A program made the translations under genes and the position numbers. Shown here one piece after another: positions 1 to 4,542 of a DNA stretch of 8,885 nucleotides (position 1 is its first letter; each line of letters starts with the position of its first letter). Source of the stretch: a virus (lineage: Duplodnaviria > Heunggongvirae > Uroviricota > Caudoviricetes); the IMG/VR virus record IMGVR_UViG_2609460067_000009; one strand, 5' to 3'. The notes under the pieces were generated by a model. That model ran no database searches, was not told the DNA's origin, and worked only from the letters and a program-made list of their open reading frames with translations.

Positions 1-48
1 TCCATGCGGTGATTTCCCTGAGTATGTCAGCCATTGAATGCCTCCCGG

Positions 49-345
49 TTACTCGTTCGTGTAAATCACGCCCAGTCGTGCAGCCAGACGTTCCAGTTTT
101 TTCTGTTTGTGGAAGTCAATCAGCCGGTCCATCCCCTGAAGGCGCAGTTGCTCTGTCATGATTTCCACGTCTGCCAGCTCTGCCGCGAGGTCACTTTCGC
201 TGCCCTGTCCGTTCAGGTTGCGGGCGGCACTGGCCGCCAGTTCAGCGGCCTCTTCTGCCAGTTTCAGGGCCTGTGCGTCCGGCCCGAAACGCTGCAGGGC
301 CAGACGGTAGAGGGCGGTGCGGGTGAGTTCGGTGTTTCGTGTCAT
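49..345 (-). CDS. MazG-like all-alpha nucleotide pyrophosphohydrolase domain protein
   Basis: 98-aa ORF. EExxE motif (LAEEAAELAAS) followed by ExxD (LAAELADVEIM), the signature pair of MazG/HisE-type NTP pyrophosphatases. Last gene of the co-directional minus-strand cluster. Assignment is from motif recall, not a search. Confidence 0.5.
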   Translation of the reverse strand: MTRNTELTRTALYRLALQRFGPDAQALKLAEEAAELAASAARNLNGQGSESDLAAELADVEIMTEQLRLQGMDRLIDFHKQKKLERLAARLGVIYTNE

Positions 346-354
346 GCCGCGCCC

Positions 355-627
355 TCAGTGCTTCCGGCTGACGGTGATGTGCAGGCCGCCTTCTGCAGTG
401 GTTTCCATCCGGTACGGCACCTCATGCTCTGCCGTGTGGGTGAGTGTGTTCATCAGTACCTGCAGGGCAGCCTCCTTTCCGTTGGTCGCCACAATGGCCT
501 GTGTGGCCATGCTGATTAGCGCCGTCAGGACGTGCTTCACATCGGTGAGGTCGCGGCATTCACACTCGTTGACATAGTGTTCAACAAGGGTTCGGGTGCG
601 CTGTCGTGCTTCCTGTGGGGTAATCAT
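355..627 (-). CDS. hypothetical phage protein
   Basis: 90-aa ORF. Its start overlaps the stop of the upstream zinc-ribbon gene by 4 bp (ATGA, 624-627), consistent with translational coupling. It ends 10 bp before the next gene. Confidence 0.5.
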   Translation of the reverse strand: MITPQEARQRTRTLVEHYVNECECRDLTDVKHVLTALISMATQAIVATNGKEAALQVLMNTLTHTAEHEVPYRMETTAEGGLHITVSRKH

Positions 628-818
628 TGCGAGTCCTCCCTGTCAGGGCGGGAGAATTCCATGACGGGCACGTCTGCCGAAAAATGCTGGCTGCAGTACG
701 GGCAGACCAGGGTGACGCGTACCGCAGGGATGTGGTATTTACCGGACATCACGGCGATGGCGCTGTGAAAACGCAGGGCTGTTATATCCCTCTCGCACTG
801 AATACATTTAAATATCAT
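624..818 (-). CDS. small zinc-ribbon protein (CxxC...CxxC)
   Basis: 64-aa ORF with two CxxC pairs (CIQC and CPYC, about 30 residues apart). Strong GAGGAG Shine-Dalgarno 9 nt upstream of the ATG (minus strand, 833-828). Confidence 0.55.
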   Translation of the reverse strand: MIFKCIQCERDITALRFHSAIAVMSGKYHIPAVRVTLVCPYCSQHFSADVPVMEFSRPDREDSQ

Positions 819-915
819 GATTTAATTCTCCTCTGTTTCCGGCGTGCAGAAGCCCGCGGCGCTGACGTCGGAATAAAAAAGAAAATGTTTTTATTAAATA
901 ATTAACGTGGTGTGT

Positions 916-1446
916 TTACTGCACATCCTGCTCAAAAGGAATTATTGAAAAATCCTCAATGTCGCTTTTAATGGAAATACCGGGAATATTTTTCACGGCC
1001 TCTTTTTCATTCAGGATAGCGTCTTTATTTATTTCCTCTTTTACACGAATAAAGCGCTCAAGCCCCAGACGTCTCAGTAATTCAATAACATTATCCGCCC
1101 CACGGATACTGACTGATGGCGGACGGTTTCGCCACTGCACCTCGCCGGTGGTGAGGTTAGCGAACTTCACCTTCCCGTTGCCGGTCAGTTCATCACGGTG
1201 TGCCTCACACCATGTCTGAATACCGGACTGCAGTTCGGCCATGCGTTTTTTCAGGCTCTCGGTGAGCGGGGCATAACGTGCGGTGATATCGCCAATGGCG
1301 TCATTCATTTCTGTTTCAGCCCTGACCAGTTCACGTTGTGCGTCACCGAGTAGTCTGATTCCCTCAATGACCTCTTCACGTGTCCCCGGCACCCAGAGTG
1401 CTGCTGCGGCCTTGATACGTTTTGCACCTTTTGTACTTTTTGCCAT
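916..1446 (-). CDS. gam: host-nuclease inhibitor protein Gam (Mu Gam family)
   Basis: 176-aa ORF with blocks I recognise from Mu Gam: N-terminal MAK..KRIK.AAA, ETEMNDAI, WCEA.RDELT, PPSVSIRG, GL.RFIR.K.EINK.AIL and C-terminal EDFSIIPFEQ. GGAG ribosome-binding site upstream. Confidence 0.9.
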   Translation of the reverse strand: MAKSTKGAKRIKAAAALWVPGTREEVIEGIRLLGDAQRELVRAETEMNDAIGDITARYAPLTESLKKRMAELQSGIQTWCEAHRDELTGNGKVKFANLTTGEVQWRNRPPSVSIRGADNVIELLRRLGLERFIRVKEEINKDAILNEKEAVKNIPGISIKSDIEDFSIIPFEQDVQ

Positions 1447-1473
1447 TTTTTATGATTTCTCCAGTTGTGCTGA

Positions 1474-1743
1474 TTACCACAAAGATTCCGGCCACACGAC
1501 GCGACAGCCGTGCAGTTCGAAAACGCCCTGACGGAAATATCCCCTGTGGTCATGTCCGGTATACAGATAACAGGCCTTTCCCTGCTCAAGCATGCGCATG
1601 CAATGCGCACTCCGGGAAACGCGGATGACAGGTTTGTTACCCCTGATGGTGATGCTCTGTACATCCGTGTTCGTCGCCTTAAGCGCCATAATGGCTGACT
1701 GCACTTTGCTGATTTGCTGGTTGATACCTGTGGTGGATTTCAT
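1474..1743 (-). CDS. hypothetical small protein (Kil-equivalent position between B and gam)
   Basis: 89-aa ORF starting 2 nt after the B stop, with an AAAGGGG ribosome-binding site. Contains a Cys/His cluster (C..H..C...H.H...H.C). Function is not recognisable from sequence. Confidence 0.5.
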   Translation of the reverse strand: MKSTTGINQQISKVQSAIMALKATNTDVQSITIRGNKPVIRVSRSAHCMRMLEQGKACYLYTGHDHRGYFRQGVFELHGCRVVWPESLW

Positions 1744-1745
1744 TA

Positions 1746-2912
1746 TTAAACCCCTTTGACAACGTCAGCGTTGACCTGTGGAACCCCGATTTCAGCGGCC
1801 AGATTCATGGCGGCTATTACCAGGTTACTGACGGCCAGCGGATACAGCAGGCTGACCATATTTTTACGGTGACTTCCCGGATTGCTCAGGCGGGCACGTA
1901 TGGCATCCACTGCACCGGCGTCCATAATGTCCGTCAGCTGTTTACCGGCCCGTTGCAGTTTGAACGTCAGAAATTCTTCAAGGTTATTGTCCAGAGGCAG
2001 AAGTTCGACCACCTCACAGCGCTGAACGACTTCACGGACTTCCATATTGCGTTCAGACAGTTTTGTCGCCAGTTCCGGCTGGCCAATCAGCACGATGGAC
2101 AGCAGTTTTTTGAAACCGGACTCCAGCTCAAAAAAGCGTTTGAGGTGTTTCAGTGTCGGAATGGGCAGACTGTGGGCCTCCTCAATCACCAGAACGTGGC
2201 TGAACCCCGCCTGGCTGCTGTCTTTCAGGACGCGATGCAACTGGCGAAAACGGGCGTCCTGACTGCGTCTGATGCTTTCCAGTGGTGCGATGGTACTGAT
2301 AATGGCTTCGGCAATAGCTGCTGCCTTCAGGGTTTTCCCTTTCACATCGTTGTCTTCCATAGCGATGATGTATGGCTCGATAACAATTACCGGCGCATTC
2401 TCGCGGTTGATACGTTCAGTCAGGTCGCGGCGCAGCGTGGATTTACCCGCACCGGACTCACCGATGACGGCCATAAACCCACCATGACGGGCTGTCTGGT
2501 ACAGCGCCTCACGCACGTAGCGAATGTCCGGGGTGGTGAACACATCATCAGAACCCTGCATGGCTTCGTCGGCGAACGGGTCACGGAAAAGACCAAACGC
2601 TTTTTTGGTTGCTGGAAATAACACCTGTTTTTTGAGTAACATATTCTCTTCCTCACTGAGGCTCGTTTTATCTGTGGTACCCGCTGTACGGGGCGTGGCC
2701 GCGCCCTGTACAGCATCAAAACTCTTCGTTGTATCAATCCCCTGACTTTCCAGCCAGGACGCAAGACGCCGGCGCACTTCTCCGGGGCTGGTGCGGGGCC
2801 ACGCGTTATGATTCACAATCTGGGCCAGCGTGGCCTCAGAAACATCGACAGCTCTCGCCACCACCGCCTGTGGAATACGGGCCTCTTTCAGTTGCTGCTT
2901 CAGTACCAGCAT
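1746..2912 (-). CDS. transposition ATPase B (AAA+ / ExeA-TniB-like), N-terminal HTH
   Basis: Walker A GESGAGKST and Walker B VLVIEEAH. N-terminal HTH-like segment (IPQAVVARAVDVSEATLAQIV). Start placed at the ATG at 2912, which is preceded by GAGGAGG overlapping the transposase TGA stop. The ORF-track start at 2951 would overlap the transposase by 29 nt. Confidence 0.85.
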   Translation of the reverse strand: MLVLKQQLKEARIPQAVVARAVDVSEATLAQIVNHNAWPRTSPGEVRRRLASWLESQGIDTTKSFDAVQGAATPRTAGTTDKTSLSEEENMLLKKQVLFPATKKAFGLFRDPFADEAMQGSDDVFTTPDIRYVREALYQTARHGGFMAVIGESGAGKSTLRRDLTERINRENAPVIVIEPYIIAMEDNDVKGKTLKAAAIAEAIISTIAPLESIRRSQDARFRQLHRVLKDSSQAGFSHVLVIEEAHSLPIPTLKHLKRFFELESGFKKLLSIVLIGQPELATKLSERNMEVREVVQRCEVVELLPLDNNLEEFLTFKLQRAGKQLTDIMDAGAVDAIRARLSNPGSHRKNMVSLLYPLAVSNLVIAAMNLAAEIGVPQVNADVVKGV

Positions 2913-2922
2913 GTTTCCCTCC

Positions 2923-4542
2923 TCAGTTGCCGTTAACAATGCTGATAACACTGCTGCGGGCCGGTGTGGTCAGCGTGGCCATGACTTCATCCAGTGCGGC
3001 TTCCGGTACGCCGTCCGGGTACTGTGCCGTTAACTGGCGGTAATGTTCCGGCGTCCAGGTAAGGCCGTCGGCGCTGAACTTATCGCGCAGGGCTTTCGCG
3101 GCCTCCACATGAGTCATGGGACGTTGTTCAGTGCGCGGCCCGCGTACGTCAGAGGCCTGACCACGCTTCGGCATATAGGCCGGAAGTGTGGTGTCGTCGA
3201 TATGTTTATACGGGTCAAGCCGCCCGCCGAACGGCAGCGCCTTCGCCTTGCGTGCGGCGGCTGCATCTGCGGCGTTGTCTGTACCGGTAACCAGCGCTTC
3301 GGTTTCTTTTGCCGCCATCTGTGCCGGGGTTTCCGGCAGGGCTTTGTAACTTTCGCCAAATACCGCCGCGCCTTCAGCAAAGCCAAACTCGTTCTTTCTG
3401 ACCTCTTCGACCAGGAAGAACGTCTCGTGGCCGTCCTCACCGGTCAGAACCACCTGTGCCACATCGCTGCGCCATGGGTTACGGGTAATCATCAGTTTTT
3501 CACCAACCAGTACGCCCGGTACCGTTGATACGTCAAATTCAGTGCCCCGGAACGAGACACGAAGTTTTGGCGTGACTTTGCGGAGTTCTGGTGCCGCCAC
3601 AGCCAGTTCACGACATACCTCAACGGAAGGCGCTTTTTTCAGCTGCTCAGCAGTAATCTTCAGCCAGATATCCGTGCGGGTTTTACCGTGGCGGCTGTGA
3701 ACAGCCGTGGCGTTAAAGTGGCTGCGCCATTTCGCGGCCAGCGCGTTGAGTTCTTCCAGACTGTGAACCGGCCGGAACTTCAGACCCGGCTCCAGCTTGC
3801 GTTCGATAATGTCACGCGCCTTTTCCACCTGTCCGGTGGCGCGGGCGTTATGCGGCTTGTGCGCTATCAGGTCGATGCCCAGTGAGCGGCACATGTTTTT
3901 CGTCATACCCGCGGTGTTTGCCGAGCCGGGGTCGAGATAGAGTATTTTCGGCACGCCGTGCAGCACGTCTGCGCCGCCACGCTCCTGCATGGCGTTGATA
4001 AGCACAGAACACAGGTTCTCACCTGATTCCGCGCCCGTCACATACTCAACGTAAATCCAGCCGCTGGCATGGTCGGTAATCTCGTAACTCCACACGCGGT
4101 CACTGGCGATACGGGCAAGGTTAGCGGGCTTGTTCTTGTAGAACTTCGCGCTGTCCATCACCTGCAGCCCTTTATGTCCATTGCTCAGGTAGTAAAGCGT
4201 GCAGAGTGAGGCGTCAATCTGCCAGACATGATTGGGATGCAGACTGGCCACTTCGGTATGTGGTGCAGGGGCATCCAGTTGTTCCGGGTGCAGGCCATAG
4301 TTACGCAGAGCACGGCTGATGGCATCTTCAGACAACGGGAAAAACTCACTGGTGGTTTCATCTGTTCTGCCTGCGGTGATAAAGCCGTTAGCCCGCAGGG
4401 TTTCCACTGCATCTGCGATGGAATAGAGACGCTTACCGTTCTTGCGGGTGGCCTCACGCAGTGTGGCAGATATCAGCGCGGCTTCGTCGCGGGTCAGGGC
4501 GCTGCGCCCGGCATCGGCGCGTTTTTTGCGTTTATCAGTCAC
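2923..4542 (-). CDS. DDE transposase (transposable-phage A protein, retroviral-integrase-like DD35E core)
   Basis: Large ORF immediately upstream of the AAA+ ATPase. Candidate catalytic residues in VWQIDAS or ITDHASGW, LYLDPGSANT and GQVEKA, with the last two about 36 residues apart. Start is ambiguous: GTG at 4542 overlaps the upstream stop as GTGACTGA and is favoured; the ORF-track start at 4647 is a TTG that would overlap the upstream gene by about 110 nt. Confidence 0.85.
   Translation of the reverse strand: MTDKRKKRADAGRSALTRDEAALISATLREATRKNGKRLYSIADAVETLRANGFITAGRTDETTSEFFPLSEDAISRALRNYGLHPEQLDAPAPHTEVASLHPNHVWQIDASLCTLYYLSNGHKGLQVMDSAKFYKNKPANLARIASDRVWSYEITDHASGWIYVEYVTGAESGENLCSVLINAMQERGGADVLHGVPKILYLDPGSANTAGMTKNMCRSLGIDLIAHKPHNARATGQVEKARDIIERKLEPGLKFRPVHSLEELNALAAKWRSHFNATAVHSRHGKTRTDIWLKITAEQLKKAPSVEVCRELAVAAPELRKVTPKLRVSFRGTEFDVSTVPGVLVGEKLMITRNPWRSDVAQVVLTGEDGHETFFLVEEVRKNEFGFAEGAAVFGESYKALPETPAQMAAKETEALVTGTDNAADAAAARKAKALPFGGRLDPYKHIDDTTLPAYMPKRGQASDVRGPRTEQRPMTHVEAAKALRDKFSADGLTWTPEHYRQLTAQYPDGVPEAALDEVMATLTTPARSSVISIVNGN

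Follow-up and report, generated by a model that had tools for sequence, protein, structure and literature searches.

Downstream of gam in the early region of a BcepMu-like prophage lie three small genes which, on balance, we regard as separate: the last probably encodes a minimal MazG-type enzyme of 98 aa, and the other two, encoding a 64-aa zinc-ribbon protein (Zn64) and a 90-aa protein (p90), are probably independent accessory cassettes. The features discussed below are numbered in the window, i.e., the whole stretch of 8,885 nucleotides that was analysed.

1746-2951, minus strand: MuB/ExeA-type ATPase
1474-1743, minus strand: 89-aa protein (p89), phrog_2041
916-1446, minus strand: gam, Mu Gam-like DNA-end protection, the upstream neighbour of the three genes; Pfam Phage_Mu_Gam PF07352 (E 9.9e-41), phrog_491
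819-915, minus strand: gam-Zn64 spacer of 97 nt, an AT-rich tract and then a hairpin
624-818, minus strand: 64-aa zinc-ribbon protein (Zn64), phrog_3401; C5-x2-C8 ... C39-P-Y-C42
355-627, minus strand: 90-aa protein (p90), phrog_3691; optional cassette between the Zn64 and MazG-like genes
49-345, minus strand: 98-aa protein, predicted minimal MazG type, phrog_2245; putative Mg-binding residues E31, E32, E35, E56 and D59
1-34, minus strand: start of the gene for a 71-aa predicted membrane protein (TM71), the next early gene, which runs past the window

The prophage and its early gene order

Positions 1-1500 of the window are 100% identical to Escherichia phage PhiKM (PQ738613, genus Bcepmuvirus), and the source element is a BcepMu-like transposable prophage of E. 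coli. The prophage was found in 621 of 5426 complete E. coli genomes, or about 11%; the region was covered to at least 80% in 619 of the 5426 and was chromosomal in every case. In some E. coli genomes (NZ_CP076697.1 and NZ_CP196276.1), IS1 insertions split the homologue of window 1-1500 in two. In the annotated GenBank and RefSeq records, the region corresponds to the early operon, read leftward, of a Mu-like transposable prophage, in which the genes on the minus strand follow the order DDE transposase (MuA), MuB, p89, gam, Zn64, p90, MazG-like, TM71, DUF2786/DUF7168, two small ORFs, gemA and mor, after which comes the host gene ycaL; the gemA and mor products match PF06252 and PF08765, respectively. 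The three genes thus sit within a same-strand block between the transposase genes A/B (with gam) and gemA-mor, as in a Mu-type early region, and we take them to occupy the counterpart of what is known in Mu as the "semi-essential" early region.

The three ORFs predicted to follow gam (64, 90, and 98 aa) are all present on the minus strand. They had been described as overlapping or tightly spaced, which is right for the three genes among themselves, with a 4-nt ATGA overlap between Zn64 and p90 and a 9-nt spacer between p90 and the 98-aa gene, but not for the junction with gam, where the gap of 97 nt is not a tight one. The 98-aa gene is separated from the next gene (ATG at 34) by 14 nt, and a GGAG-type Shine-Dalgarno site lies ahead of every start of the three genes. 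Each product has an end-to-end PHROG match (Zn64 to phrog_3401, E 1.6e-40; p90 to phrog_3691, E 4.2e-56; the 98-aa protein to phrog_2245, E 5.5e-34). When the 26-39 distinct alleles available per gene from related loci were compared, substitutions piled up at the third codon positions of the minus-strand frame, with differences at positions 1/2/3 of 634/505/1391 for the 98-aa gene, 516/488/903 for Zn64, and 329/244/448 for p90. For well-diverged allele pairs (dS about 0.1 or more), dN/dS was 0.11-0.19 for the 98-aa gene, 0.04-0.34 for Zn64, and 0.15-0.47 for p90, most values thus falling within 0.04-0.47, and all three genes are under purifying selection. The fastest-evolving of the three is p90. 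When E. coli alleles of p90 that are very close to each other were compared, dN/dS was about 0.65-1.3, with at most 10 substitutions per pair; together with the mosaicism of some p90 alleles described below, these values could be a sign of selection that is relaxed or diversifying, but they are based on numbers too small to tell.

Two long plus-strand ORFs, at 34-519 and 627-905, were considered as genes and rejected as by-products of a G+C-rich coding strand, since both the third-codon-position excess and the dN/dS values favour the minus-strand frame. The GenBank record of PhiKM carries a plus-strand "hypothetical protein" (window 684-905; 9684-9905 in locus L001) instead of Zn64, where RefSeq PGAP has the zinc ribbon. 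Conservation and codon-position evidence favour the zinc ribbon over the GenBank plus-strand ORF.

The three genes had also been placed in one operon with gam. They share its strand, which is compatible with one early transcript, and no terminator-like or promoter-like (sigma-70-like) consensus was found in the gam-Zn64 gap (819-915). Most likely, transcription of the three genes would start, together with that of gam, at the early promoter, and their translation would be coupled. The RNA of the spacer can be folded so that the Zn64 Shine-Dalgarno sequence (AGAGGAGAA) is paired, in a hairpin, with a U-rich run, with an MFE of -22.3 kcal/mol and a z of -2.2; 4 of 200 shuffles fold equally well. 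This hairpin could serve translational control of the accessory genes or be due to chance. An Rfam search returned no matches.

The 98-aa protein as a MazG-type pyrophosphohydrolase

The original prediction called the 98-aa protein MazG-like by motif alone, and that call is now backed by its PHROG family, a conserved metal motif, and a predicted fold. The family that it matches, phrog_2245, is named "nucleoside triphosphate pyrophosphohydrolase". None of the curated family models used for the class (Pfam MazG PF03819, MazG-like PF12643, and PRA-PH PF01503) was matched at its gathering score: PRA-PH reached 15.5 bits against a cut-off of 21.3 and PF03819 gave nothing, and the search of NCBIfam likewise stayed below threshold (hisI, 14.6 against 42.7). 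Single-sequence and shallow-profile searches of PDB sequences yielded noise or marginal MazG matches.

All close homologues of the 98-aa protein come from Enterobacterales prophages. When 1.84 billion representatives were searched with a profile, 10443 proteins were retrieved at E 1e-3 or better, 1913 of them at 1e-10 or better, and, judged by sequence similarity, the Enterobacterales prophage proteins are one branch of a large family. In an alignment of 70 sequences with 31-68% identity to the query (A2), E31, D59, and Q66 are invariant and E32, E35, E56, K83, and R86 are at least 90% conserved. The carboxylates are arranged as E32-x2-E35, 20 residues, and E56-x2-D59, with E31 in addition; this is the metal-binding pattern of the MazG class (E-x2-E-x(12-28)-E-x2-D), and it is kept down to about 30% identity. 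Pfam MazG PF03819 was matched at E 0.01 or better by 20 of the 70 relatives. When the family profile was compared to B. cereus MazG (5ie9), EExxE and ExxD fell in register, the match itself being marginal (E 0.011), and weaker PDB-sequence matches were obtained to iMazG, YpjD, and 1vmg. E35 is replaced by K in one natural allele, P0015. Distant MazG-like proteins from Mu-like prophages (loci L103-L110, e.g., L104 3986-4483; also P0012 and P0031) are 163-169 aa long and carry a C-terminal extension of about 70 residues which is conserved among themselves, absent from the 98-aa protein, and without a Pfam match.

The MazG assignment had been made to hinge on a fold prediction, and AlphaFold modelling followed by structure comparison gave a positive one. 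In a first round, with 21 close sequences, the five AlphaFold models did not agree, and a Foldseek search of the PDB with the shallow-alignment model found nothing significant. With the 70-sequence alignment the five models agree (AF2; pLDDT 95.0-96.1, pTM 0.81) and consist of two long, nearly continuous helices at residues 9-44 and 50-90. The solved structures matched by this model include HisIE (7.0), a T. maritima MazG-related protein (6.2), integron iMazG (6.2), AF1178 pyrophosphatase (6.1), plant HISN2 (6.0), mouse RS21-C6 (5.7), YpjD (5.5), and E. coli MazG (5.1), with a few ferritin-like and designed helical bundles interspersed among the MazG/HisE matches. The best matches in the viral structure library BFVD are proteins named nucleoside triphosphate pyrophosphohydrolase (TM 0.74-0.81, probability 1.00). 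The predicted all-helical fold is thus superposable on solved MazG/HisE structures. Taken together, the alignments and the model point to the 98-aa protein as a genuine, divergent member of the MazG all-alpha NTP pyrophosphohydrolase superfamily (MazG/HisE/dimeric dUTPase).

Proposed role of the enzyme

Enzymes of the MazG superfamily attack a nucleoside triphosphate, in a Mg-dependent manner, at its alpha-beta phosphoanhydride. By this chemistry, the conserved EExxE...ExxD carboxylates of the all-alpha 98-aa protein would bind Mg2+, and a nucleoside triphosphate would be cut between its alpha and beta phosphates to yield the monophosphate and pyrophosphate. The role that we tentatively prefer for such an enzyme, giving it a little less than even weight, is that it would clean or tune the dNTP pool (dUTP, dCTP, or non-canonical dNTPs) during replicative transposition with the host polymerase. 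This role is favoured by analogy, because the nearest solved relatives are dNTPases, because a cyanophage MazG prefers dGTP and dCTP, and because distant relatives of the 98-aa protein lie in phage replication/recombination modules, together with RusA, DnaB, Sak/RecT, SSB, and RNR. Among the small solved relatives, iMazG is a house-cleaning dNTP pyrophosphohydrolase (PMC3856429).

The original prediction favoured another role, host takeover or anti-defence. In one version of such a role, the MazG-like protein would, soon after induction, remove (p)ppGpp or some other nucleotide signal and so blunt abortive infection. There is a precedent in Atd1 of a Pectobacterium phage, a ppGpp hydrolase that gives protection from TIR-STING and retron-TIR toxicity (10.1101/2022.06.09.495361), and the position of the gene, in a non-essential mosaic early region that is the home of host-interaction genes (gam, kil-like), would suit such a role, as would its turnover as a cassette, which is usual for accessory genes. 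Against it, the one cyanophage MazG tested neither bound nor hydrolysed (p)ppGpp (PMC6850273), the nearest solved relatives are the house-cleaning dNTPases mentioned above, and the distant relatives are found in replication modules and not in known anti-defence islands. A search of the PADLOC defence models, which do not cover anti-defence genes, found no relative. We therefore consider a counter-defence enzyme unlikely, and dNTP-pool cleaning or tuning remains the role that we prefer.

The zinc-ribbon protein and p90

The prediction that Zn64 is a zinc ribbon is borne out by its homologues, in which C5, C8, C39, and C42 are invariant. The four cysteines are unchanged in 36 unique variants from related loci, some of them no more than 24-29% identical, and in an alignment that reaches down to 24% identity, and they form two conserved CxxC knuckles about 30 residues apart, as expected of a zinc ribbon. 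Matches of Zn64 in Pfam and NCBIfam were sub-threshold only (Sgf11, 19.2 bits against 26.4; YnfU), and a profile search of the PDB gave nothing better than E 0.1. Nearly all known members of the p90 family come from E. coli and a few relatives. The core LISMA..A.VATNG is invariant, as are C22, C24, and H90; no relatives of p90 were found in Pfam, NCBIfam, PADLOC, or, by profile search, the PDB. Some p90 alleles (loci L055 and L056) are mosaics of two N-terminal types.

Two natural deletions run through these genes. In P0102, Zn64 residues 1-26 are in frame with the C-terminal part of Mor and the whole accessory region is gone, and in P0087, a "VP" present in both proteins (Zn64 ...ADVPVMEF, p90 ...HEVPYRMET) marks the junction of Zn64 residues 1-51 with the final 19 residues of p90. 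The accessory region is therefore dispensable for prophage carriage.

Independent cassettes in a fixed gene order

The original prediction joined the three genes and Gam into one functional block. This did not hold up when the region was compared across loci, for Gam is swapped for another protein, the zinc ribbon and the MazG-like gene occur independently of each other, and p90 is present in about half of the unique regions. Our first sample comprised 93 Mu-like loci recovered via the MazG-like protein, with 56 distinct MazG-like alleles, and was by its making biased towards MazG-like genes. The upstream neighbour is Gam for 21 of the 56 alleles and a DUF3164 protein for 34; a zinc ribbon accompanies 40 of them and p90 accompanies 20. 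The DUF3164 protein (203 aa; PF11363, E 3e-80) occupies the exact slot of Gam in L004 (3104-3715) and 47 other loci, so that Gam and the DUF3164 protein seem to be alternative cassettes and may well have analogous roles.

Because of the bias of the first sample, a second was drawn via MuB, and 76 of its loci reach gemA or mor. Both the zinc ribbon and the MazG-like gene are present in 59 of these loci, the MazG-like gene only in 8, the zinc ribbon only in 9, and neither in 0. With marginals of 68 and 67, independence would put both genes in 59.9 loci, against the 59 observed. In the nine loci with the zinc ribbon only, the MazG-like slot holds unrelated small genes. Since the co-occurrence matches independence and the slot is refilled, we take the zinc ribbon and the MazG-like gene to be cassettes that assort independently within a gene order that is fixed. 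We had taken the two for a conserved pair on the basis of the MazG-like-selected loci, and withdrew this once the MuB sample showed independence. As for p90, it is found in 35 of 70 unique regions, in 35/35 of these between the zinc ribbon and the MazG-like gene with both neighbours present, and its insertion keeps the start/stop coupling in both lineages. There was neither the excess co-occurrence nor the absence of single genes that would mark an obligate three-gene module.

Apparent fusions of the zinc ribbon and the MazG-like protein into one chain (P0026 and P0036) were considered as Rosetta-stone evidence and rejected, because the zinc-ribbon and MazG-like ORFs of L004 and the other loci examined overlap by ATGA and lie in different frames, so that a frameshift is needed to join them. 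P0036 is also frameshifted at its C-terminus, and both fusions most likely arose from indels or sequencing errors.

It could nevertheless be argued that the three products act as one unit, with the zinc ribbon, and p90 where present, serving the MazG-like enzyme as a subunit for regulation or targeting. In most relatives the zinc-ribbon stop and the MazG-like start share an ATGA overlap, which is exactly where p90 is inserted with the coupling kept, and p90 is confined to regions with both neighbours. Weak hints in the same direction come from 5 of 24 N-terminally extended distant relatives, which have at least two CxxC motifs in the extension, and from several loci without an upstream ribbon, where the MazG-like gene has a different CxxC...CxxC protein overlapping its 3' end. 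This alternative protein is 57-172 aa long, has no Pfam match, and starts inside or just after the MazG-like 3' end, at the following positions:

L011, 4263-4721: alternative CxxC...CxxC protein
L074, 4209-4727: alternative CxxC...CxxC protein
L097, 4284-4751: alternative CxxC...CxxC protein
L106, 4491-4664: alternative CxxC...CxxC protein

The CxxC extensions of the distant relatives, however, are not demonstrably homologous to Zn64, and the link to p90 is confounded by shared ancestry, which can explain its confinement between both neighbours, p90 being mostly found in one E. coli lineage. The co-occurrence of zinc ribbon and MazG-like gene is just what independence predicts, either gene is found without the other, and the fusions require a frameshift. 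Some functional link among the neighbours may still exist, since p90 always lies between both of them and some relatives have CxxC-rich extensions, but a single three-part unit seems to us improbable. We give still less credence to a combination of the two preceding alternatives, a regulated nucleotide-hydrolysing counter-defence module of transposable phages in which the enzyme would deplete an alarmone or immune signal, the ribbon would target or activate it, and p90 would be a lineage-specific modulator. The reading that we prefer for Zn64 and p90 is that they would share a position with the enzyme and not be its required partners.

Last, it is highly improbable that the 98-aa protein keeps the MazG fold mainly for a non-catalytic binding or regulatory role, as the moonlighting of phage dUTPases of the same all-alpha superfamily as derepressors of pathogenicity islands (PMC5608427), the very small size of the protein, and the K at E35 in P0015 might suggest, since the five carboxylates together with K83 and R86 are conserved, to about 30% identity, in a family of more than 10000 representatives, which is the pattern of a catalytic site.

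Comparison with known systems

The analysis supplies a function-class annotation for a protein called "hypothetical" in RefSeq and GenBank, whose carrier prophage is present in roughly a tenth of complete E. coli genomes, as counted above. Among enterobacterial BcepMu-like phages, the small predicted MazG-type enzyme is a frequent but dispensable early-region cassette (67/76 loci). It offers a small, tractable system for the substrates of phage MazG proteins, on which published experiments disagree (ppGpp versus dGTP and dCTP). The system is of a known kind, a divergent MazG member in a mosaic accessory region, and no new system type.

The closest solved systems are the minimal single-domain MazG proteins of S. 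solfataricus (1vmg), the Vibrio integron (iMazG, 2q5z/2q73), B. subtilis (YpjD, 2gta), B. cereus (5ie9), and mouse (RS21-C6, 2a3q). As far as the conserved residues and the model can tell, the 98-aa protein works like these minimal MazG proteins, from which it differs in falling below the curated Pfam thresholds, in the two long, nearly continuous helices of its model, and in being encoded on a prophage, in a Mu-type early operon.

Compared by its description, Atd1 (phage PcCB7V of Pectobacterium) is, like the 98-aa protein, a phage-encoded single MazG domain from a phage of Enterobacterales. The settings differ: Atd1 was picked from genes near phage nucleotidyltransferases, whereas the 98-aa gene lies in a Mu-type early region. 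A tblastn search of 50697 phage records with the 98-aa protein matched only four Mu-like phages. With no detectable close relationship between the two, the 98-aa protein cannot be filed as Atd1-like. The cyanophage MazG is likewise a phage pyrophosphohydrolase, long presumed to act on alarmones and then found to prefer dGTP and dCTP (PMC6850273). It is larger, is of bacterial origin, and belongs to lytic cyanomyoviruses, in contrast to a protein of 98 aa from a transposable prophage.

The semi-essential region of Mu itself (kil, gam ... gemA, mor) has the same position and orientation, after A/B and gam and before gemA-mor, and also consists of small, dispensable accessory genes. Here too the early accessory region can be lost, since the deletion in P0102 fuses Zn64 to mor. 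No MazG-like protein is known from the semi-essential region of Mu, and none was found there in the searches of the phage collection (50697 records). Compared to Mu, the gene content of the early region described here is lineage-specific and mosaic, and the MazG-like gene is one of its cassettes.
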